Virus record (IMG/VR): IMGVR_UViG_3300029305_003259 | Coordinates: 1 to 64,000 of that record | Direction: 5' to 3' (one strand) | DNA: 64,000 nt | From: a virus | Lineage: Duplodnaviria; Caudoviricetes | Program-made: the position numbers and the translations under genes | Part shown: in pieces, positions 4,016 through 64,000 of the stretch | Numbering within the stretch: the stretch's first letter is position 1 | Layout of the letters: every line of letters starts with the position of its first letter | Notes under the pieces: generated by a model | The model's input: the letters and a program-made list of their open reading frames with translations, nothing else | Databases searched by the model: none | Told to the model about the DNA's origin: nothing

Positions 4016-4162
4016 TTACCAGTACTTGACATACTCACGGAACTTCATCTTTCCGTTGGTAGCCCGATATACCACATACATCAGGCCAACGAAGATGGAA
4101 TAAGGAACCACGAGAACGAGGCAAAACAGGCCTCCGAAGCAAATGGCAATCAAAGCGTCCAT
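4016..4162 (-). CDS. small membrane protein (48 aa, not in ORF track)
   Basis: MDALIAICFGGLFCLVLVVPYSIFVGLMYVVYRATNGKMKFREYVKYW; GAAAGGA RBS. Confidence 0.7.
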   Translation of the reverse strand: MDALIAICFGGLFCLVLVVPYSIFVGLMYVVYRATNGKMKFREYVKYW

Positions 4163-45931: not shown

Positions 45932-46248
45932 TGGCTGTATTAAAATATAAAGACCCAACTACTGGCGAAGTTTGCACAGTAGGAGCACCTAAGATAAAAG
46001 CTCCAACTTATGTATCTTCAACTATGTTAGCCACCTCTTGGGTAGACAACACTTATAGCTTCGAAGCTGACTACCCACATGTAGATTTTGATATTTCAAT
46101 TGAGGTAGCTCCTACTGCTACCGTAGAACAATTCGAGGCATTTGGAGAAGCAATGATTTGTGGCTCAGCCGATACTAATATTGCCACTGCGATTAATGGA
46201 GCACCTTCTATTGACATTCCAATTGTCATAAAGGTGGTGGGTAAATGA
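45931..46248 (+). CDS. small fibre adaptor
   Basis: shares KYKDP.TG and L..SW motifs with 44291. Confidence 0.6.
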   Translation: MAVLKYKDPTTGEVCTVGAPKIKAPTYVSSTMLATSWVDNTYSFEADYPHVDFDISIEVAPTATVEQFEAFGEAMICGSADTNIATAINGAPSIDIPIVIKVVGK

Positions 46249-49200
46249 GCTTACAAGTATTAACTCAAGGTGGTGCTGGCGGAGCTTCTGCTAGTATCCA
46301 AGTTAATGGTCTAAGTGAAACTGATAGTGTTAAAGCTGTTCAGAAGATTAAGAATGTTATTGAGAATCCTGATTATAAGGAATATAGAGTATTAAAAGGT
46401 CAATTGGCTCTTGGAGATGTAGCAGTTGGCGAGACTGTCAGACTGAATGTCAGTGGAGTAGCAACGGAATTCATAGTAGTTAATCAAGGTAAACCTTCTG
46501 ATCTATATGATGATAGTTGTGATGGTACATGGTTGTTGATGAAGGGTATTGAACAAGGTAGTACCTGGAACAACTCTAACTATAGTGGCAATAGCTATGG
46601 TTCATCTGCAGTCCACAGATACCTTAATAGCACCTTTTTAGGTACGTTGGATGCTGGCATACAGTCTGTTGTCATCCAAGCAAAGATTCCATACGTCAAT
46701 GGGACAGGTTCTGGTGGCTCTGTAGCATCTGGTTCTAATGGTTTGTCTGCAAAAGTTTTCTTACTTTCTGGTTACGAGGTGGGTTTCACTACAAGTGATG
46801 ACTCTCGTTTTCCAATTGATGGTTCAAAGTTGAGTTACTTCTTGTCAGGCTCAGGCACTTCCGCTAATAATAAGCGTATAGCTTATCTGAACGGAAATGA
46901 CGATTATAGTTGGTGGTTACGTTCTCCATATACCGCAGGAACAGAAATGGTTTTCTTGGTAAACGATCAAGGTATGAAAGGTCAATCACTACCAAGTCCA
47001 AAAAGAAATCGTCCAGCAATGATTCTCCCGACCAATCTTTCCGTCAAAGACGGATTCATTGACGGTACTGAGGTACAACAAGGAAAATTACTTAGCTCTG
47101 CATCCGTTGGAGACATTGTTAAGATGAATGTTGGCGGTACTCCTACGGAATTTATTGTGGTGCAACAAGGTAACCCTGATTCGTCTTTGTATGATGAAAG
47201 CTGCGATGGAGCTTGGCTGTTGATGAAAGATATTCACAATACTGCTATGTACACCACAATTGGTAACGCATCTTATAATTTTGCAATGATACAAAATTCG
47301 TTGAGTATATTCTTAGGAAAATTAGATGAGAATGTATTGAATGCAGTAAAGACAGTAAAAATACCATATTTAGAGATAGAGGGAGCCAAGAATGATATTA
47401 AGAGAACCCTATTCTCTGGAACGGAAGGTCTATCAACTAAAGCGTTCCTATTATCTGTCTATGAGGTAGATCCTAGTAGGACAGGTTCTCCTAAAGATGG
47501 TACATGCTTAGACTATTTTAAGTCTGCTAGCACGAGTGATCGTATCGCTTCTTTCGAAGGTACAACGACTGCCTGGTGGACTCGTACAGGATGGGGGACT
47601 TACGCTGATACTCAATCATATCTAGTTGGCGATAATGGCAGCACATCGACAACAAGCGTTAAGACATATTGCGGTGTTCGTCCCGCTATAATTCTTCCTG
47701 GTGATACAATAATAACCGACGATTTCATTGGTGGTTCAATATCAGAGCCTAGCAGTGTAGAAACTTATACTCCTCTAGAGTATATCGAGAGTACCGGTAC
47801 ACAGTATATTGATACAGGATATCTCCCTCAGCAGCATGACGAAGTCTCAGCAAAATTCGAAATGACCGAGATATTAGAATATAACAGATTAATTGGAGCT
47901 GCTACTGGTAGTAGCGGTGCAGCCTACTACGGATGCAATCCAATTACTCAATTAAATGGGTACTTCGATATAGGTTATTATAACTGGTATAGACCTAACT
48001 CCATTCCATGTGAAAAAGATACTATTTACGATTATTACGCATCTCTTAGCGATGGAAGTCAGGAATATACTATCAATGATGCAAATATGAGTGGAGACTT
48101 GACTGGGTTCGTAGAGATACCTTGTTCTTACTTTGTGTTCTCGGTGAACCATGATGGTAGTCCTGAATGGGGTAGCTCTGAATCTAGTTGTTGTCCTGCA
48201 AAATTGTATGGTTTGTCAATCAGCAATAATTCGGTATTGATTCGAAACTTTGTCCCAGCTAAGCGTAATTCAGATGGAGTTCTAGGCCTATTTGATACTG
48301 TAAATTCTGTCTTTTATACCAACGCAGGTACTGGTGACTTTGTTGCTGGCCCCGAGGTTTCTCAGTATATTGAGGCGGTTGTCGATGGTAGAACTGTGAA
48401 TGGTAGATGGGTCGATATGATTAATCCTGAGTATGTTGAGCTACCTGTTACTGAGAATGAGGCAATTGATGGATATACCAGACTTGAGTACATCGAAAGC
48501 AGTGGCACGCAGTACATTGATACCGGGTTCACCCCTTCCAGCGCAAGAAGTTTTAAGTTCTCTTTTGATGCGGCGTTCTTGAGTGAGACTAATGCTATTT
48601 ACGGAACGGGTCGCTCTTATGCGGGATTCTATAGTAGCCCCTCAATAGCACAATTTGCTCTATATCAGACTATAGTACAAATATCATCCGTATCATATGA
48701 TACTAATAAACATCACTTTGTTCTCGATGGTGTAAATTTAACTGCTACAATTGATGATAATTCTGCGTCTATACCTTATTCGTCTGGTTCACCTTCAGAT
48801 TATACATGGGTACTTTTTGGATACTCTCACGCAAGTTTTAATGCAAGTAGGCTGTGGGGCGCACAGATTGAAGAAAACGGAGTGCTGGTACGCAACTTTA
48901 TCCCCGCAAGGCGGGATTCCGATTCCGTGGTTGGCCTGTATGACCTTGTGAACGGCGTGTTCTACACCAATGCCGGAAGCGGCGAATTTGTAGCAGGAGA
49001 AGAATTGTCTCAATTTACTAAGGAATATATTCAGTTAGAGTACATTGAGAGTACTGGCACACAGTATATTGATACTGGTTATAAGCCCAACACAAATACA
49101 AAGCTTGAAATTGGAGCATCTACTACCGATACTACAAACGATAAGCCTCTATTTGGTGTACGTAAATCAAATGGCGTAGATGGATTCTTGTGTTGGTTTA

Positions 49201-50357
49201 ACCCACAGGTTGCAGAACAACCCGGTTTTGCAGTAGGTTCTATGTCTAATACTTATACTAGTTATGGTATAGCTACTGGAGTTCGTTATGATGTAACGCT
49301 ATCCAATTCATTATTTACAATGAATGAATTGTCTTATCCTTTTGATGCACAGACTTTCACTTCTAGTTATAATCTTTATCTACTTGCACTTAATAAAGCA
49401 GATGTTCTAGATAATAGATTGTTCTATGGTAGATTGTATTATACTCGTATTTATGAATCTGATGTTTTAGTTCGTGATTATGTTCCAGTTAAGAGGGTAT
49501 CTGATGGCGCAATTGGTCTATACGATAAAGTCAATCAAACATTCTACTCTAACGCAGGCACCGGGAACTTCACAGCTGGTGCAGAGGTTCCTGAATCATT
49601 TAGTTATTTCTTGATTTCCCCAATTAAAGCTTATGGTACTTGGGAAGTAGGGACTACCAGCAGTGTAAGTATTAACAATCAGAATGTTGATATCGATGAG
49701 GCTACCATCTTTAATCTAGACTTTGTAAAACTAGTTAGATTCACTACTGACTTTACAGCAAAAGGTGATGATTGGATTGAGGAGGGTGGCACATTCACTT
49801 TCAATCCGGCAACCGCAGCCTATCCCGGATTGTATCAAGCGGAAGGCAGTACACAATTCGGCACACTTACAACCTATGATAGTACGGAATGGAAAGCAAA
49901 ACGGTTAATAATTCCGTTAGGCGGTTCTCTTGAAACTTTCCACGCAGAAACGGAATGTTTCTGGGTATCATCCGATGCAAACAGAATGGGTCGCTTGATG
50001 CTATGTTTCCAAGACGAGGATGGAAACTTTTTGTTCCACATCATTATTAATGATGGTTGGGGTCGTTCCAATAGCATAAGCATCGCCTATTTCAACGCAT
50101 TGAACTCTAATCTGTTGAAATTCGTAGATGCCGTATCTGTCAGCCCGTATAACAATGTTCCGTTGCGCTTTACGCTGGATTATGACGGCAACAAGATGAA
50201 CATTGGATTTTCTTATAACGGCGGGGGATTTTCCTATAAATCGGAAACCTATGCTTTCCCTGCGATTGCAAATGCGGTGGTATATTTCGCCTACTATCCG
50301 ACATCTAACCCGACCCCGCTGATGAATATTCGTTCACTAACAGTAGAACAAGCATAA
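46245..50357 (+). CDS. large adhesin/receptor-binding protein: two DUF6273-like domains and three lectin-like repeats
   Basis: K.FLLS.YE...WW.R...RPA x2; LEYIES[TS]GTQYIDTG...FY.NAG.G.F.AG x3. Confidence 0.8.
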   Translation: MSLQVLTQGGAGGASASIQVNGLSETDSVKAVQKIKNVIENPDYKEYRVLKGQLALGDVAVGETVRLNVSGVATEFIVVNQGKPSDLYDDSCDGTWLLMKGIEQGSTWNNSNYSGNSYGSSAVHRYLNSTFLGTLDAGIQSVVIQAKIPYVNGTGSGGSVASGSNGLSAKVFLLSGYEVGFTTSDDSRFPIDGSKLSYFLSGSGTSANNKRIAYLNGNDDYSWWLRSPYTAGTEMVFLVNDQGMKGQSLPSPKRNRPAMILPTNLSVKDGFIDGTEVQQGKLLSSASVGDIVKMNVGGTPTEFIVVQQGNPDSSLYDESCDGAWLLMKDIHNTAMYTTIGNASYNFAMIQNSLSIFLGKLDENVLNAVKTVKIPYLEIEGAKNDIKRTLFSGTEGLSTKAFLLSVYEVDPSRTGSPKDGTCLDYFKSASTSDRIASFEGTTTAWWTRTGWGTYADTQSYLVGDNGSTSTTSVKTYCGVRPAIILPGDTIITDDFIGGSISEPSSVETYTPLEYIESTGTQYIDTGYLPQQHDEVSAKFEMTEILEYNRLIGAATGSSGAAYYGCNPITQLNGYFDIGYYNWYRPNSIPCEKDTIYDYYASLSDGSQEYTINDANMSGDLTGFVEIPCSYFVFSVNHDGSPEWGSSESSCCPAKLYGLSISNNSVLIRNFVPAKRNSDGVLGLFDTVNSVFYTNAGTGDFVAGPEVSQYIEAVVDGRTVNGRWVDMINPEYVELPVTENEAIDGYTRLEYIESSGTQYIDTGFTPSSARSFKFSFDAAFLSETNAIYGTGRSYAGFYSSPSIAQFALYQTIVQISSVSYDTNKHHFVLDGVNLTATIDDNSASIPYSSGSPSDYTWVLFGYSHASFNASRLWGAQIEENGVLVRNFIPARRDSDSVVGLYDLVNGVFYTNAGSGEFVAGEELSQFTKEYIQLEYIESTGTQYIDTGYKPNTNTKLEIGASTTDTTNDKPLFGVRKSNGVDGFLCWFNPQVAEQPGFAVGSMSNTYTSYGIATGVRYDVTLSNSLFTMNELSYPFDAQTFTSSYNLYLLALNKADVLDNRLFYGRLYYTRIYESDVLVRDYVPVKRVSDGAIGLYDKVNQTFYSNAGTGNFTAGAEVPESFSYFLISPIKAYGTWEVGTTSSVSINNQNVDIDEATIFNLDFVKLVRFTTDFTAKGDDWIEEGGTFTFNPATAAYPGLYQAEGSTQFGTLTTYDSTEWKAKRLIIPLGGSLETFHAETECFWVSSDANRMGRLMLCFQDEDGNFLFHIIINDGWGRSNSISIAYFNALNSNLLKFVDAVSVSPYNNVPLRFTLDYDGNKMNIGFSYNGGGFSYKSETYAFPAIANAVVYFAYYPTSNPTPLMNIRSLTVEQA

Positions 50358-58031: not shown

Positions 58032-58050
58032 ATAAAGGAGATGATTGATT

Positions 58051-58701
58051 ATGACAAAAATTTATCTTTCACCAAGTTCACAGCCTGAGAATAAATATGC
58101 TTATGGGAACACAGATGAACAAACGCAATGCAGAAAAATTGCAAATGCATGTGAAAAGGCGTTGAAAAGATGTGGATTTGAAGTTAGGAACGGGCAAACT
58201 GGTGATCATATAAGTAGAACTAAGGAATCTAATGCTTGGAAGGCTGATTTACATGTTGCAATTCATACGAATGCTTTTAATGGTTTGGTTAGAGGAACAA
58301 GGATGTTCTATTTTAATGAAACCGGAAATAGCTATAAAGCGTGTAAAGCAATTTATGATATTTTATCTAAAAATAGTCCAGGAACAAGTGATAATATGAC
58401 AAGGAATCAGAATTTGTACGAGGTTTATTATACTAATTGTTCTCCAGTTTATATAGAGGTAGCGTTCCATGATAATGAATATGATGCTAAATGGATTGTA
58501 CAAAATACAGTTCAAATCGGAGAGTGGATTGCTCATGGAATTTGTAATTACTATGGAGTTAAATATATTACATCTGGTACAAATTCTGTTTCTAAAACAT
58601 ATCAAGTTGTTTGTGGTTCATTTGGAGTAAAAACGAATGCGGAAAAGAGAAAACAAGATCTTGCTAAAGCAGGTTTTGATTCATTTATACAAGTTAAATA
58701 G
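58051..58701 (+). CDS. Amidase_3-family N-acetylmuramoyl-L-alanine amidase + SPOR domain
   Basis: IHTNA, YIEVAFHDN; YQV.CGSF..K.NAE. Confidence 0.88.
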   Translation: MTKIYLSPSSQPENKYAYGNTDEQTQCRKIANACEKALKRCGFEVRNGQTGDHISRTKESNAWKADLHVAIHTNAFNGLVRGTRMFYFNETGNSYKACKAIYDILSKNSPGTSDNMTRNQNLYEVYYTNCSPVYIEVAFHDNEYDAKWIVQNTVQIGEWIAHGICNYYGVKYITSGTNSVSKTYQVVCGSFGVKTNAEKRKQDLAKAGFDSFIQVK

Positions 58702-58702
58702 C

Positions 58703-58725
58703 GGAGGCCAATGGCCTCCTTTTTT
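58703..58725 (+). terminator. intrinsic terminator
   Basis: GGAGGCC/GGCCTCC + T-tract. Confidence 0.75.
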
Positions 58726-58742
58726 GATTGGAGGGATTTAAA

Positions 58743-59228
58743 TTGAAGATATTATCATTTGATCAAAGCACCACTAGATCAGGATATGCCATATTCATAA
58801 ACGGTAAATATGACCATAGTGGCGTTATAGATAAACATACAATAAAAGATTCAGAAGCTAGATTCAAGGAAATGTATGAAGGCATACATGATTTGATAGT
58901 TACAGAAAAACCAAATATTGTAGTTTTGGAAAATACCCAAGCACAGGGAAATAATATGGCAGTGTTTAGATTGTTGTGTCAATTACAAGGTGCAATCATG
59001 GGCATGTGTTATGCAAGAGGAATTAGATTTTGCGTGCTGGCTCCAACAATGTGGAGGCGAATTTTGCAATTTTCACAAGGGCCAAAGATAAAAAGAGAAG
59101 AACTTAAGCGGCAGAGTATGGAATATGCTAAGAGATTTAATATTGAGGACTCAGAAGATAGAGCCGAGGCAGCATGTATTGGGGCTGCTTACATTATAAA
59201 TAATGCCGAAGGCATAGATATAGAATAA
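58743..59228 (+). CDS. RuvC-like Holliday junction resolvase
   Basis: LSFDQS...GYA, VVLE, P..W, D.AEA. Confidence 0.85.
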   Translation: MKILSFDQSTTRSGYAIFINGKYDHSGVIDKHTIKDSEARFKEMYEGIHDLIVTEKPNIVVLENTQAQGNNMAVFRLLCQLQGAIMGMCYARGIRFCVLAPTMWRRILQFSQGPKIKREELKRQSMEYAKRFNIEDSEDRAEAACIGAAYIINNAEGIDIE

Positions 59229-59250: not shown

Positions 59251-59775
59251 ATGACAATTAAGGAATTTGTGGAACTAACTAAAACTAAGGGCTGGATGCC
59301 CATGACTGTTGCAGACCAGAATGAGAAGATTAAGGCCACATTAAATGTTAAGTCTTATCTTAGCATTAAGGATAAGAAAAAACTGGTAAATGATATTGTT
59401 GATGAGACCGTTATTTATGAAAACGGACTTATTAAATTCAATGGCATAGATCAGTTCCTCTGTTACACGATGAGATGTATCGAAGCTTATACTGATTTAG
59501 AAATTGATGATATGGAAGACAACTATGACCTACTGTGTTCCACTGGTCTATTAAATAAAATCTTACGCACTTTTGAAGAGGAATACAATTCTATTCTGTC
59601 TCTACTTCAGATGCAATGTGATTATGTATTAATGGATAATAGTGTTACTGCCAATATCAATGTATTATTGACTGCGGCTACAAATGCTATTAATAAGTTA
59701 GGCGACTCTGCTGGCGACATGTTCAAAAATGTTAATCCAGCAGATTTTGCTGCAATTCTATCTAAATTAAAGTAA
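59251..59775 (+). CDS. hypothetical protein, possible tail assembly chaperone
   Basis: AGGAG RBS; two genes upstream of the tape-measure ORF. Confidence 0.55.
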   Translation: MTIKEFVELTKTKGWMPMTVADQNEKIKATLNVKSYLSIKDKKKLVNDIVDETVIYENGLIKFNGIDQFLCYTMRCIEAYTDLEIDDMEDNYDLLCSTGLLNKILRTFEEEYNSILSLLQMQCDYVLMDNSVTANINVLLTAATNAINKLGDSAGDMFKNVNPADFAAILSKLK

Positions 59776-59789
59776 GGTAGGTGGGTTTT

Positions 59790-60371
59790 GTGGCAAAAAG
59801 ATATGATGATTTTAATAAAGTTTACAAAGCAGTAAAGCAAAACGCTAAAAGGGCCGCAATATCTGCCGCAAAACAGACAACAAAAAGAATAGCAAATGAT
59901 ATGCATAAAGAGGCCCTTAAAGGATTGGAATATTATTATAAAAATTACGACCCTGATGTATATGAAAGAACTTATAATTTAAAAAACGCAATTAGACCAT
60001 ATTTTAAAGATACCTCTACAGATAAAAAAATTAATGTTGAAATAGGCATAGTATATGATGAGTCTTATTTAGAGACATATAAAAGTAAATCTTGGAGGCA
60101 TCAAAGTGGAAATGATTGGATTTCCAGAGAAGATGATGGGTTTGATTGGGATTCAGGCAATAATGGCGTTCCCGAACCTGATTGGATTTTAGAAAACTTT
60201 TTACGTGGTATTCACCCAAGAACTACAGTTGGATATGCTTATGCACCGGTGCAAGACCCTAAGAGCCAAATCCAAATTATGAATGATTTTATTAATGATA
60301 AAGTTCAAATATTAATGGATGAATACATGAATACCGCTCTTTTACGAGAATTTACAAAACGTATGCGTTAA
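59790..60371 (+). CDS. tail-associated protein
   Basis: YY..YDP..YERT..L pattern; position. Confidence 0.55.
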   Translation: MAKRYDDFNKVYKAVKQNAKRAAISAAKQTTKRIANDMHKEALKGLEYYYKNYDPDVYERTYNLKNAIRPYFKDTSTDKKINVEIGIVYDESYLETYKSKSWRHQSGNDWISREDDGFDWDSGNNGVPEPDWILENFLRGIHPRTTVGYAYAPVQDPKSQIQIMNDFINDKVQILMDEYMNTALLREFTKRMR

Positions 60372-60386: not shown

Positions 60387-63300
60387 TTGAGAGAGTTTAA
60401 ATTTAGAATAACCACAGATATATCCGACCTTGAAGCACAATTTAAGGGCGGTGCAGATGCTCTGGCTAAAATGGCCAAAGCAGCTGGTCAGGCGGAAAAT
60501 AAATTAGATTTTTTAAAAGAAACAGGAACATATTTAGATCAAATTGATGCCGCACTTAGCGAATTAAAGACAAAATACCCAGATTTGTTTAATAAAATAT
60601 TTAATAATGTTGATAAACAGATAAAAGATGCTATCGCTCCAATTAAACAAATGACAAAAGAAATGGACACATTGTTTGCGCATGTTGGTGCGCAGCTACA
60701 AGGAATGTCAAGTGGTAAATTAGATGGTAGTAGAAAAGAAATTAATCAAATAATTGTTGGCATGAAGGCTCTTGCCAATGCATTAAATGTAAAGATTGAT
60801 TTTAAAGTTTTTGAAGATATGGTTAACAACGGAGATGAAGCAAAGGTCATAGCAAATTCTATGATTGGCAGCCTTGAAAAGATTGCTAGTGCATATACTG
60901 ACATTGGCAAAACATCTTTAGAAGCTTCAAAATCTATAGATAGTATTGGTAAAAATAAAACTATAAAGGACGCTGCCGAAGATGCCAAAACTCTTAATGC
61001 GGAGTTAAAAAATACCAAAAAGGCTGCTAAAGAAGCAAAAAAAGAAGTAGAGACTCCTGTAAAGCAAAAAGATAGTGGTTCTAAGCCACAGAACGCAATG
61101 AGTTATGACGATTTGCTGAAAGCTGTAAATAAAGCCAAAGATTTATCAAAAAAAATAGATGATGGCGATGATAGTGCGTTTGATAAAATGGACTCGCTTT
61201 TAGGCTCTTTGCAGAAAAAATTCAAGCTTAATGAAGATGGCGTTGCTAGATTTGAAGAGGCAATGCAAGATTTAGATATAACCACAGAAGAAACAATGCG
61301 AAAATTGCAGACTATACTTGGTGATAAATTTCCATCTGCAATCCAAGAAAGCAAAGAGGAAGTCAAAGAATTAACCAACGCTATAAATTCTGCGGATAAA
61401 GATTTAAACAATGTAAGCGTTGCTGAGGCTAATGCAAAAGCAACAGAAGAAGCGGCGGACGCTGCGCGAAGAATTGCCGATGAAACAGAAAGGGCTAAAA
61501 ATGCTGCCTTAAAATTAGACGAAGCATTAAAAGGAGCTGGAAAAAGAACAGAGGGCGCAATTCTTTACGATTCACAGACAGGAGCATATGGTGATGCTAT
61601 AAAAGGTGAAGACCATCAGGTAAAAATACCAACTTCTGATGGTAAAAAATATGATACAGAAATGCATACTCACCCTTGGGATTTTGCCGCTCCATCTGTC
61701 GAAGATTTTGATGTATGGATTAACAATTTCGATGAATTTAAAAAGTTTGCAATTCGTGCAAATAAAGAAATATTATCTATTGATTTTTCATCCATTGATG
61801 CTGATGGTTTAAAAAACATTAGAGACCAATATGCTGTAGCAGTTCAAAAGATAGAAGAAGAATTTGGTCAATATGCAACGGATATTAACGCGATGAATGG
61901 AAAATTTGGATCATATGATGGATGGCAAAATGCAGCACAACAAGCTATGCAAAATGCTCTGAAGAATATGCTTGATCCAAAAATGTTTTCAACTATCGAT
62001 TTCCAAAAAGTTGTCGAACAATCAGGGTCTACAAAGGCAACAGTGCCTCTATCTGAACAATATGCTGGAGCAAGTGAAGAGGTTAAAAGATTAGTTAATG
62101 AACTTGCAAAGCTTGACGATCTTGATGAAACAGACGAGATTGCTGCAAAGTGGAACCATTTAGCAGAAATTGCCCCAAATATTTATAAATCAATGCGCGG
62201 AGATGCATGGGAGAATTTAAAACAAGACATTCTTTCTAATACTTCTGCTGTTGAAAATTTAGGAGAAGAAATAGATGAGGCATTAACGCTAGAAACTGGT
62301 AATCTTGAGTCAAAATTGGAGAGACTAAAGGATCTTGCCGATGAATATGGCATGCAGATTACTCAGCGAGATCGTAATACTTTAGAATTTTTAATCGACC
62401 AGGATAATGAGAAAGAATTGACTGGCGCAAAAGCAGACAGACTTTCTGAATTGCAAGACAAAATTGATGCGGCAGATGATGCGTTAATTGCATTTGAAGA
62501 ACAATACGATAAAATAATTCTAAAACTTGAAAATGGCAAAAAGGTAGAAATTCTACCTAATGATAAAGGCCTTCGTGATTTATATAAATTCATGGATGAA
62601 GGCGACGGAAGAACTTTTAATGGTATTGATGTTGCCGATGTTGAATACGTCCGAGCAGAACAGTTTGTAAGAACACAAATTGAGTCATATGAAGAATTAT
62701 GTAAAGTTGTCGAAAGATATAATGAATTGCGTCATAAAAAGGACAGAACTTCAAAAGAAAACATTGAATTTCAATCACTTCTTGACCGTATTAGAGCAAC
62801 TGAGCCAGAAAACGGCATAACAAGTCCAGATTACGATAAACGATTAATAGAATTTACTAGAATATTTAAAGAGTGGCTTTTAAATACGGATTCTCTTGCA
62901 AAATATCTTGGCATTGAAATTCCGCAAGCAGCAGTGATTGCTGAATCTGCGGTTGAAAATCTTGGACAAGAAATTAAGGAATCTTTATCTCCAGAAGCCG
63001 TAGACTCTAAGTCTGTTATGAAACAATTCCAAGATATTTGGAAACTGAAAAACGACTTAAAATATGACCTTAATTATAATGCAAAATATATTGGCGATGA
63101 TGCTGCAGTAAGCGAAGCAAAACAACAAGTTGCCGAATATGATGAAAGACTAAAACAACTTGCCGTATCTTATGTTAGCCTTGGTGGCGCAGTTGATGAT
63201 TTTAAATCTAAGGAAAAACGTGAGTTTGCAGCGGATGTTGTTAACAATTTAAACGAGCAAAATCAGCAGGCAGAAAGTCAACTCGAAGAAACAAATCAAA

Positions 63301-64000
63301 AGTTAAGAGAGCAAGAAGATCTTTATCAACAGGTTCGCACTGCAATTAAAGGCACTTTAGAAGAAGTTGTAGGTATGGATTATACCGCAGTTGCTCTTGA
63401 AGACATCGAAAGAGAAATCAAAGATGGTCTAATTACTACTCTTGAAGAAGCCATTATTCGTTTTAAAGAAATGAATAATATAGCCGACGATGTTCGTATT
63501 GCCGCTGTAGGTGAATATCAACGTGTAGCTGATAGCTGGGATTATTATCAAGGAAATAGATATGTTGATGAAGATAATGAAACCGTTGTTAATAAAAACG
63601 AATATGACTCTTTAAAGCAAAAATCATCAGGTGAAGATATTGGACAAGAGTATAAAGATTTAGAAGCTTTACGTAAAAAGGTTGAAGAAGTAGAAGCTGC
63701 TATTATAAATAAAACATTAGCGTTTCATCAAGAGGCGGACGCTGTAGAGGTTAATGTAAGAGATGAAATTGATAGGCTCGAGTTGCTGCGTATTGCAATT
63801 ACTCAAGTGGAACAAGCAATCAAAGATAAAACTGCAGCATTCTATAAAGAACGTGATGCGGTTGAGTTCAATGTTGAAGACGAAATATATCAACTTGAAA
63901 AGCTACGCAAGAAGCTTGAAGAGGTTGCTGGACAGGTACAATTAGTTGGCAAAATTAATTTGGGCGCCGATGGTTCAGGAGAAATAAATTCTCATATGCT
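60387..64000 (+). CDS. tape-measure-like protein, over 1200 aa, truncated by window end (not in ORF track)
   Basis: TTG after GGAAGGTG; helical A/E/K-rich; tandem 39-aa repeats near 63660-63930; no in-frame stop seen in the segments read. Confidence 0.75.
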   Translation, partial: MREFKFRITTDISDLEAQFKGGADALAKMAKAAGQAENKLDFLKETGTYLDQIDAALSELKTKYPDLFNKIFNNVDKQIKDAIAPIKQMTKEMDTLFAHVGAQLQGMSSGKLDGSRKEINQIIVGMKALANALNVKIDFKVFEDMVNNGDEAKVIANSMIGSLEKIASAYTDIGKTSLEASKSIDSIGKNKTIKDAAEDAKTLNAELKNTKKAAKEAKKEVETPVKQKDSGSKPQNAMSYDDLLKAVNKAKDLSKKIDDGDDSAFDKMDSLLGSLQKKFKLNEDGVARFEEAMQDLDITTEETMRKLQTILGDKFPSAIQESKEEVKELTNAINSADKDLNNVSVAEANAKATEEAADAARRIADETERAKNAALKLDEALKGAGKRTEGAILYDSQTGAYGDAIKGEDHQVKIPTSDGKKYDTEMHTHPWDFAAPSVEDFDVWINNFDEFKKFAIRANKEILSIDFSSIDADGLKNIRDQYAVAVQKIEEEFGQYATDINAMNGKFGSYDGWQNAAQQAMQNALKNMLDPKMFSTIDFQKVVEQSGSTKATVPLSEQYAGASEEVKRLVNELAKLDDLDETDEIAAKWNHLAEIAPNIYKSMRGDAWENLKQDILSNTSAVENLGEEIDEALTLETGNLESKLERLKDLADEYGMQITQRDRNTLEFLIDQDNEKELTGAKADRLSELQDKIDAADDALIAFEEQYDKIILKLENGKKVEILPNDKGLRDLYKFMDEGDGRTFNGIDVADVEYVRAEQFVRTQIESYEELCKVVERYNELRHKKDRTSKENIEFQSLLDRIRATEPENGITSPDYDKRLIEFTRIFKEWLLNTDSLAKYLGIEIPQAAVIAESAVENLGQEIKESLSPEAVDSKSVMKQFQDIWKLKNDLKYDLNYNAKYIGDDAAVSEAKQQVAEYDERLKQLAVSYVSLGGAVDDFKSKEKREFAADVVNNLNEQNQQAESQLEETNQKLREQEDLYQQVRTAIKGTLEEVVGMDYTAVALEDIEREIKDGLITTLEEAIIRFKEMNNIADDVRIAAVGEYQRVADSWDYYQGNRYVDEDNETVVNKNEYDSLKQKSSGEDIGQEYKDLEALRKKVEEVEAAIINKTLAFHQEADAVEVNVRDEIDRLELLRIAITQVEQAIKDKTAAFYKERDAVEFNVEDEIYQLEKLRKKLEEVAGQVQLVGKINLGADGSGEINSHM

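Follow-up and report, generated by a model that had tools for sequence, protein, structure and literature searches.

Metallohydrolases of the JAB/MPN+ (JAMM) type, among them Cap3 of type II CBASS (PDB 9ild), JAMM1/AfJAMM and the Prok-JAB family (PF14464), share an active site of the form E ... HxH-x7-S-x2-D on an MPN fold. Type II CBASS and Bil carry such JAB enzymes of their own, which reverse ubiquitin-like (Ubl) conjugation. Here we describe what appears to be the same site and fold inside the tape measure protein (TMP) of an uncultured siphophage. The gene lies in a stretch of 64,000 nucleotides (the window), which is the first half of a 128,431-bp viral record from IMG/VR (IMGVR_UViG_3300029305_003259; CheckV completeness estimate 78%). 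Judged by its sequence and a predicted structure, the region around residues 386-548 of the protein is a catalytically intact, very divergent JAB/MPN+ metallohydrolase domain. JAB domains, enzyme-bearing TMPs and polyvalent proteins are already known, each separately; our literature searches found no JAB domain inside a TMP and no phage-encoded Cap3-like counter-defence.

The Cap3 group is strikingly similar to the TMP domain in local sequence, H-T-H-P-x-D-F-x2-P-S-x2-D-x3-W. Cap3, however, is a free-standing protein of ~150 residues that is found beside an E1/E2 fusion and its CD-NTase substrate, whereas the TMP domain is embedded in a virion protein of 4,211 residues, its core is followed by a long helical insert, and Ubl and E1/E2 genes are absent from its neighbourhood. 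The gpK protein of lambda, encoded in a siphophage tail module, has a JAB domain with H-S-H-x7-S-x2-D fused to NlpC/P60, but it is a small protein in its own right, its gene lies downstream of that for the TMP and it acts together with tail-tip proteins; here the JAB domain is within the TMP itself, and no K- or I-type gene adjoins the TMP in this phage. Catalytic domains do occur inside tail rulers: the TMP of Sundance, a large Firmicutes siphophage like the one considered here, is annotated as a lytic transglycosylase, and YomI/CwlP of SPbeta and the Rpf motif of mycobacteriophage TM4 are further enzyme domains embedded in TMPs. All of these are peptidoglycan hydrolases, unlike JAB. RadC-type JAB domains (PF04002; PDB 2qlc) are known in polyvalent proteins, likewise large multi-domain proteins that are reputedly co-delivered with DNA and have been described as passing with it through the phage tail (Iyer et al. 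2017, PMC5512222). They differ from the present case in that the carrier here is a TMP, a term that is not in the text of that paper, and in that the RadC model is blind to the domain in the window. Tox-JAB-2/DUF4329 (PF14220), a divergent JAB group of polymorphic toxins, giant viruses and phage OP1 with the residues E, H[ST]H, S and D, is also a delivered effector (PMC3482391), but we found no support at the sequence level for grouping the TMP domain with it.

A preliminary description of the window had noted an intact JAMM motif inside a tape-measure-like protein, and the motif is indeed in frame in the translation of 60387-63998, with H427 starting at 61665 and D440 ending at 61706 as it had claimed. 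The string reads KRTEGAILYD ... EMHTHPWDFAAPSVEDFD and has the pattern E-x37-H-x-H-x7-S-x2-D. The predicted general base is E389 (codon 61551..61553, plus strand), on the first strand of the structural model, and the predicted Zn-binding segment, H427-T-H429-P-W-D-F-A-A-P-S437-V-E-D440 (61665..61706, plus strand), carries the conserved HxH-x7-S-x2-D. Across all six frames, the window has a single occurrence of the bare pattern H.H.{7}S..D, against an average of 0.33 in mononucleotide shuffles, so the motif by itself carries little weight. It stands out from chance through its conservation in homologues, to which a confident MPN-like model adds.

Conservation was counted over 51 homologous domains with 16-73% identity to the query. 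Domain-only alignments were assembled from DNA loci, and four misaligned rows were dropped from one of them. E389, H427 and H429 are kept in 51/51 domains, D440 in 50/51 and S437 in 47/51, with Thr or Gly replacing the serine in the remaining four. The conservation in homologues on which the preliminary description depended therefore holds at identities as low as 16%, and the counts show an intact JAMM site under strong purifying selection. In 11 diverse members the sole invariant columns are the glutamate, G407, both histidines, P436, S437, D440, I456, D466, S468 and P531, the last of which sits in the helical part after the JAB core. The distance from Ser to Asp is two residues in 24 of the 51 domains, six in 17 and takes other values in a few; the insertion in the six-residue class corresponds to about one helical turn.

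The region is predicted to adopt the MPN/JAB fold, with the catalytic residues on the expected elements. The evidence for the domain, residues 386-548 (61542..62030, plus strand), comes from an AlphaFold2 model, structure matches and the family profile. The model (m7ff1ef809ad0, from a 42-row alignment) has a pLDDT of 85.3 and a pTM of 0.77 and is ordered over model residues 9-159. It runs from a strand bearing E389 (E9-15) through a second strand and a third that ends in HxH (E45-49) to a helix that opens with S437 and D440 (H59-67), followed by two strands, the helical insert and a last strand; this order of elements, with the motif residues where they are, is the JAMM layout. A Foldseek search of the PDB gave nothing at E<=1e-3. 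Its list is dominated by AF2198/AfJAMM, Cap3, CSN5, BRCC36, Rpn11, AMSH, RadC and cytidine deaminases, which share the fold; the top matches to solved structures are all JAB/MPN and the lists are homogeneous, while a neighbouring module taken as a control at similar Z matches only mixed helical hairpins. In BFVD there are 23 structural matches at E<=1e-3. They are to free-standing phage proteins (best 1.6e-7), to 'minor capsid proteins' of 520-630 residues from uncultured phages, which from their name and length we take to be of the MuF type, and to iridovirus, phycodnavirus and pithovirus proteins.

Links to the superfamily also emerge at the level of sequence. A profile of 11 domains found Cap3 among PDB sequences at E 0.009, across H-x-H-P-E-D ... 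P-S-x2-D ... W, and AfJAMM at E ~1. Pfam searches with the 11 members gave Prok-JAB in five (best 1.9e-4), Toxin-JAB1 in one and RadC in one (E 0.084), all of them sub-threshold, and Prok-JAB was the only family to recur. The two Prok-JAB matches with listed scores reached at most 18 bits against a cut-off of 25 bits; as a calibration, genuine RadC proteins of E. coli score just 19-21 bits on that model. Aligned by hhalign with three E. coli RadC proteins, 49 domains gave P 3e-4 and a probability of 39% over ~80 columns, in which E, HxH, PS and D line up; with YicR alone, P was 0.0027. The window's domain searched directly against Pfam, PHROGs and PDB sequences yielded nothing usable. A language-model search placed Nucleocytoviricota clusters first (0.92-0.94), and DUF4329 was the nearest named family (0.87, a lead only). 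Assignment to Tox-JAB-2/DUF4329 by way of ORF24 of Xanthomonas phage OP1 gave an hhalign P of 0.25 and no match to PF14220, and is kept only as a lead; a PDB match to eIF3h (E 0.05) falls outside the MPN core, and one to a RecA linker consists of several weak repeats of an artificial linker, and both were treated as spurious. We conclude that the domain represents a distinct family of the JAB superfamily.

The protein that carries the domain is a genuine TMP, having both the core domain and the gene position of one. Its first 1,204 codons occupy 60387..64000 on the plus strand, from a TTG start, and the gene continues beyond the window to G000:C1:73022; 16 kb past the window was added to trace the end of the open reading frame, and the full gene (G000:C1:60387-73022) encodes 4,211 residues. 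Because the reading frame runs off the end of the window, it was probably for this reason absent from the gene track supplied with the window. Pfam places PF10145 (PhageMin_Tail) at residues 1970-2174 (2e-20) and a C-terminal LysM domain at 4035-4083, and PHROG 4211, 'tail length tape measure protein', covers residues 1446-4178 (3e-88). The core shares 27-31% identity with the annotated TMPs of Brevibacillus phage Sundance (2,528 residues), Enterocloster phage PMBT24 (1,508 residues) and SPbeta-like Bacillus phages. These share the core only and have neither the N-terminal extension nor the JAMM motif; the first ~1,600 residues thus form an extension confined to an uncultured clade. This enzyme-bearing N-terminal extension makes up about one third of the 4,211-residue TMP. 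Related contigs measure 165-167 kb, and the clade consists of ~165-kb gut siphophages, with Clostridia as the probable hosts.

Within that clade the domain has a fixed place. Word-based searches found eight relatives of it, and a HMMER profile search across 1.84 billion cluster representatives yielded 47 matches at E<=1e-3. In 50,697 GenBank phages neither megablast nor tblastn detected a copy, and a scan of viral_contigs for the motif pattern found none. Fragments aside, the family members are proteins of 1,160-4,115 residues in which the domain lies 300-1,050 residues in from the N-terminus; the shorter among them correspond to the N-terminal parts of TMP genes that have been cut by contig ends or interrupted by genes of the homing-endonuclease type. 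A BLAST module map against 19 long homologues shows three constant blocks: residues 1-180 (60387..60926, plus strand), which are common to all related giant TMPs; residues 371-650, made up of the JAB domain and its helical tail; and the TMP core from residue 1633 to the end. Residues 650-1630 vary among the homologues, and the JAB domain is always upstream of the variable modules. A search with residues 1-330 returned six TMPs, this one included, all six with a JAB-like domain, and four distant ones among them show the classic form H-N-H-P-x5-P-S-x2-D. Comparison across homologous TMPs, as the preliminary description had recommended, thus finds the domain constant in the related giant TMPs and lacking in the cultured relatives Sundance and PMBT24.

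The extension holds other domains. An ART-PolyVal ADP-ribosyltransferase (PF18760) lies at residues ~1232-1398, just past the end of the window (G000:C1:64080-64580; E 4e-7), with a score of 31.3 bits against a cut-off of 31.2 bits. It is limited to four homologues (P0004, P0008, P0030 and this protein) and so behaves as an exchangeable cassette. The closest homologue, P0005 (locus L003; 4,762 residues, 62-73% identity), carries a PBECR5 nuclease (PF18814, 1e-24) at residues 3242-3341, within the C-terminal half of the TMP; unlike the TMP described here, P0005 has no LysM domain that Pfam can find. With its JAB and ART-PolyVal domains the extension would make the TMP a 'polyvalent' virion protein, in which several unrelated effector-type domains share one polypeptide presumed to be delivered with the DNA; PBECR5 in P0005 is another domain of this type.

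We favour, tentatively and with rather less than full conviction, the reading that the domain is an enzyme delivered into the cell, where it would cut a peptide or isopeptide bond. If the site works like those of the solved JAMM enzymes, H427, H429 and D440 would hold Zn2+, E389 would activate water and S437 would serve to stabilise the intermediate. The extension would travel in the virion with the rest of the TMP and leave during genome ejection, and the JAB domain would then act inside the infected cell. That the TMP exits at infection we infer from what is generally known of TMPs and from the concept of polyvalent proteins (PMC5512222). As for the chemistry, we prefer a hydrolase that, like Cap3 or JAMM1, cuts a peptide or isopeptide bond at the C-terminus of a protein; a host conjugate is a possible target. 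We favour this reading because of the affinity to Cap3 and JAMM1, the ART domain nearby and the presence of the same fold in other virion proteins.

Several observations weigh against that proposal. No curated JAB-clan model passes threshold on the family and the window's own domain gives no match; PF14464, PF14220 and PF04002 have no match in the phage genome, even with E relaxed to 1-10. About half of the family strays from the canonical motif, with four to six residues separating Ser from Asp. The neighbouring genes are of the chaperone-like, Dit and Tal kinds, and none for a Ubl, E1 or E2 is nearby. Divergent JAB clades in conflict systems have been argued to be without the groove for the Ubl tail and perhaps not to be peptidases (PMC3482391; Iyer et al. 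2017). It is questionable whether a folded domain of 160 residues has room in or near the tail lumen, and whether the extension is retained on the mature TMP. Finally, the domain is constant while its neighbours vary, which is typical of a housekeeping or processing part and not of an exchangeable effector; this constancy fits such a role at least as well as it fits a specialised role in counter-defence. The preliminary description had suggested, besides processing of tail proteins, removal of Ubl conjugates made by host defences. We regard it as doubtful that the TMP is the vehicle of a Cap3-like deconjugase that strips Ubl conjugates, such as the primed CD-NTase of type II CBASS or Bil marks, at genome entry; if true, the virion would bring along a ready-made counter-defence against the ubiquitin-like immunity of bacteria.

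Because the JAB domain is the constant element, the main rival to a delivered peptide- or isopeptide-cutting enzyme is self-processing or maturation, which we consider a real but somewhat unlikely alternative. The domain would cut the giant TMP, in cis or between copies in the tail, either during assembly or after ejection to free cargo such as ART. Trimming of a TMP has a precedent in lambda, where gpH is converted to H* during tail assembly. The architecture speaks for such a role: JAB is present in all six TMPs (self included) that the N-terminal region alone retrieves, it is constant together with the N-terminus and the TMP core while residues 650-1630 vary and ART is confined to four homologues, and it always precedes the variable modules. 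It would then fill the role that Iyer et al. assign to metallopeptidases of polyvalent proteins, in which built-in peptidases are inferred to separate the parts (Iyer et al. 2017, PMC5512222), and C-terminal processing is within the repertoire of JAB enzymes (Zhang et al. 2012, PMC3482391). The peptidases known to process polyvalent proteins, however, are MPTases (Iyer et al. 2017) and stand outside the JAB superfamily. We found no conserved cleavage site in the TMPs and no Ubl-like domain with a Gly-Gly end, and the small free-standing phage proteins of the same fold have no substrate in cis.

Another alternative is that the domain is a non-peptidase effector of the RadC or Tox-JAB kind. It would belong to the divergent JAB clades that, as Aravind and co-workers have predicted, act on nucleic acids or nucleotides, and once delivered it would attack or process the DNA or RNA of the host or the phage. 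This we think improbable. The hhalign result with E. coli RadC, in which the motifs are in register (P 3e-4), speaks for it, as does the occurrence of RadC-type JAB domains in polyvalent proteins (PMC5512222). The language-model search points to giant-virus clusters and to DUF4329, though as a lead only, and the irido-, phycodna- and pithovirus matches in BFVD come from the groups in which Tox-JAB-2 has been placed (Zhang et al. 2012, PMC3482391). On the other hand, the RadC and DUF4329 models match nothing in the genome, the OP1 DUF4329 protein aligns only at P 0.25, and that RadC or Tox-JAB acts as a nuclease is itself no more than a prediction.

The expected 0.33 occurrences of the motif per window, the failure of every curated model to pass threshold and the variable Ser-to-Asp spacing would all suit an accidental resemblance, or a non-enzymatic MPN scaffold in which the residues are kept for the sake of structure. 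We judge both very unlikely, since it is precisely the five catalytic positions that are invariant or nearly so at 16% overall identity, whereas inactive MPN- domains typically lose their catalytic residues, and the lists of structure matches are homogeneous. Least credible of all is that the domain cuts the isopeptide cross-links of Gram-positive peptidoglycan during penetration: wall hydrolases are frequent in the TMPs of Firmicutes phages, the Sundance annotation among them, and this TMP has the wall-binding LysM domain at its C-terminus and no recognised hydrolase domain, but the JAB domain is ~3,600 residues away from LysM, presumably at the end that is last to come out of the tail, it shares its extension with an ART domain that needs cytoplasmic NAD+, and to our knowledge no JAB enzyme cleaves peptidoglycan.

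Downstream of the JAB domain, residues 629-767 (62271..62687, plus strand) form a further conserved module, which jackhmmer finds in 12 related TMPs and to which no function is assigned. Its 139 residues are better conserved than the JAB domain and centre on the motif Y-D-K-I-I-L-K-L-x-N-G-K-x-V-E-I-L-P-x-D-K-G-L-R. In the model (pLDDT 88.3) helical hairpins are followed by a beta-beta-alpha-beta unit. The module has no convincing fold match: Foldseek lists only non-significant rows for S. aureus EAP and superantigen-like domains (E 0.6-1), and VIA gives generic helical hairpins only. We considered whether it might be a built-in ubiquitin-like partner of the JAB domain and rejected the idea, as it has no Gly-Gly end and no convincing Ubl match.

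The surroundings of the TMP gene are those of a siphophage tail module. Immediately upstream are two genes for proteins of 174 and 196 residues (59251..60371, plus strand), with a match to phrog_7299 'virion structural protein', in the place usually taken by tail assembly chaperones; from this position we suppose them to have that role. The pair precedes every related TMP and was seen in L003, L005, L011 and L013-L016. Downstream of the TMP there are DUF6558 'phage tail protein' domains and the PHROG 6211 minor tail protein, that is, tail genes of the Dit/Tal type. Directly before the chaperone-TMP block, at 58045-59228 of the window, are an endolysin (PHROG 435) and a RuvC-like Holliday junction resolvase, an unusual location for such genes. 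The RuvC gene has the same position in most of the relatives examined (L003-L005, L011, L013 and L016), and in L003, L004 and L011 an amidase gene precedes it. Further upstream, at 46245-50357, an open reading frame of 1,370 codons has a Hoc-like head-decoration region (PHROG 10993, 4e-73) and, at its C-terminus, a Dit-like one (PHROG 202).

In this window the TMP gene is uninterrupted. In many relatives a small gene splits it just ahead of the PF10145 core or within it, and the TMP continues downstream (L004:15268-16159; L013:9789-10893; L014:7941-8760; L015:7263-8497; L016:8739-9618). The splitting gene has a Pfam match of the homing-endonuclease type in L014 (LAGLIDADG_2) and in L013 (DUF723/CapR), and the other small genes have none. 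The split sites look like a recurrent hotspot for the insertion of introns or mobile elements.

Our findings describe a compact JAB family that is invisible to Pfam, is represented by 47 cluster representatives and occupies a fixed place in the giant TMPs of large gut phages. The family is a candidate for a virion-delivered deconjugase or, failing that, for a maturation protease of 'polyvalent' tail proteins. Either outcome would reveal how siphophage tails carry enzymatic cargo. As the family also shows, some TMPs are far more than rulers.

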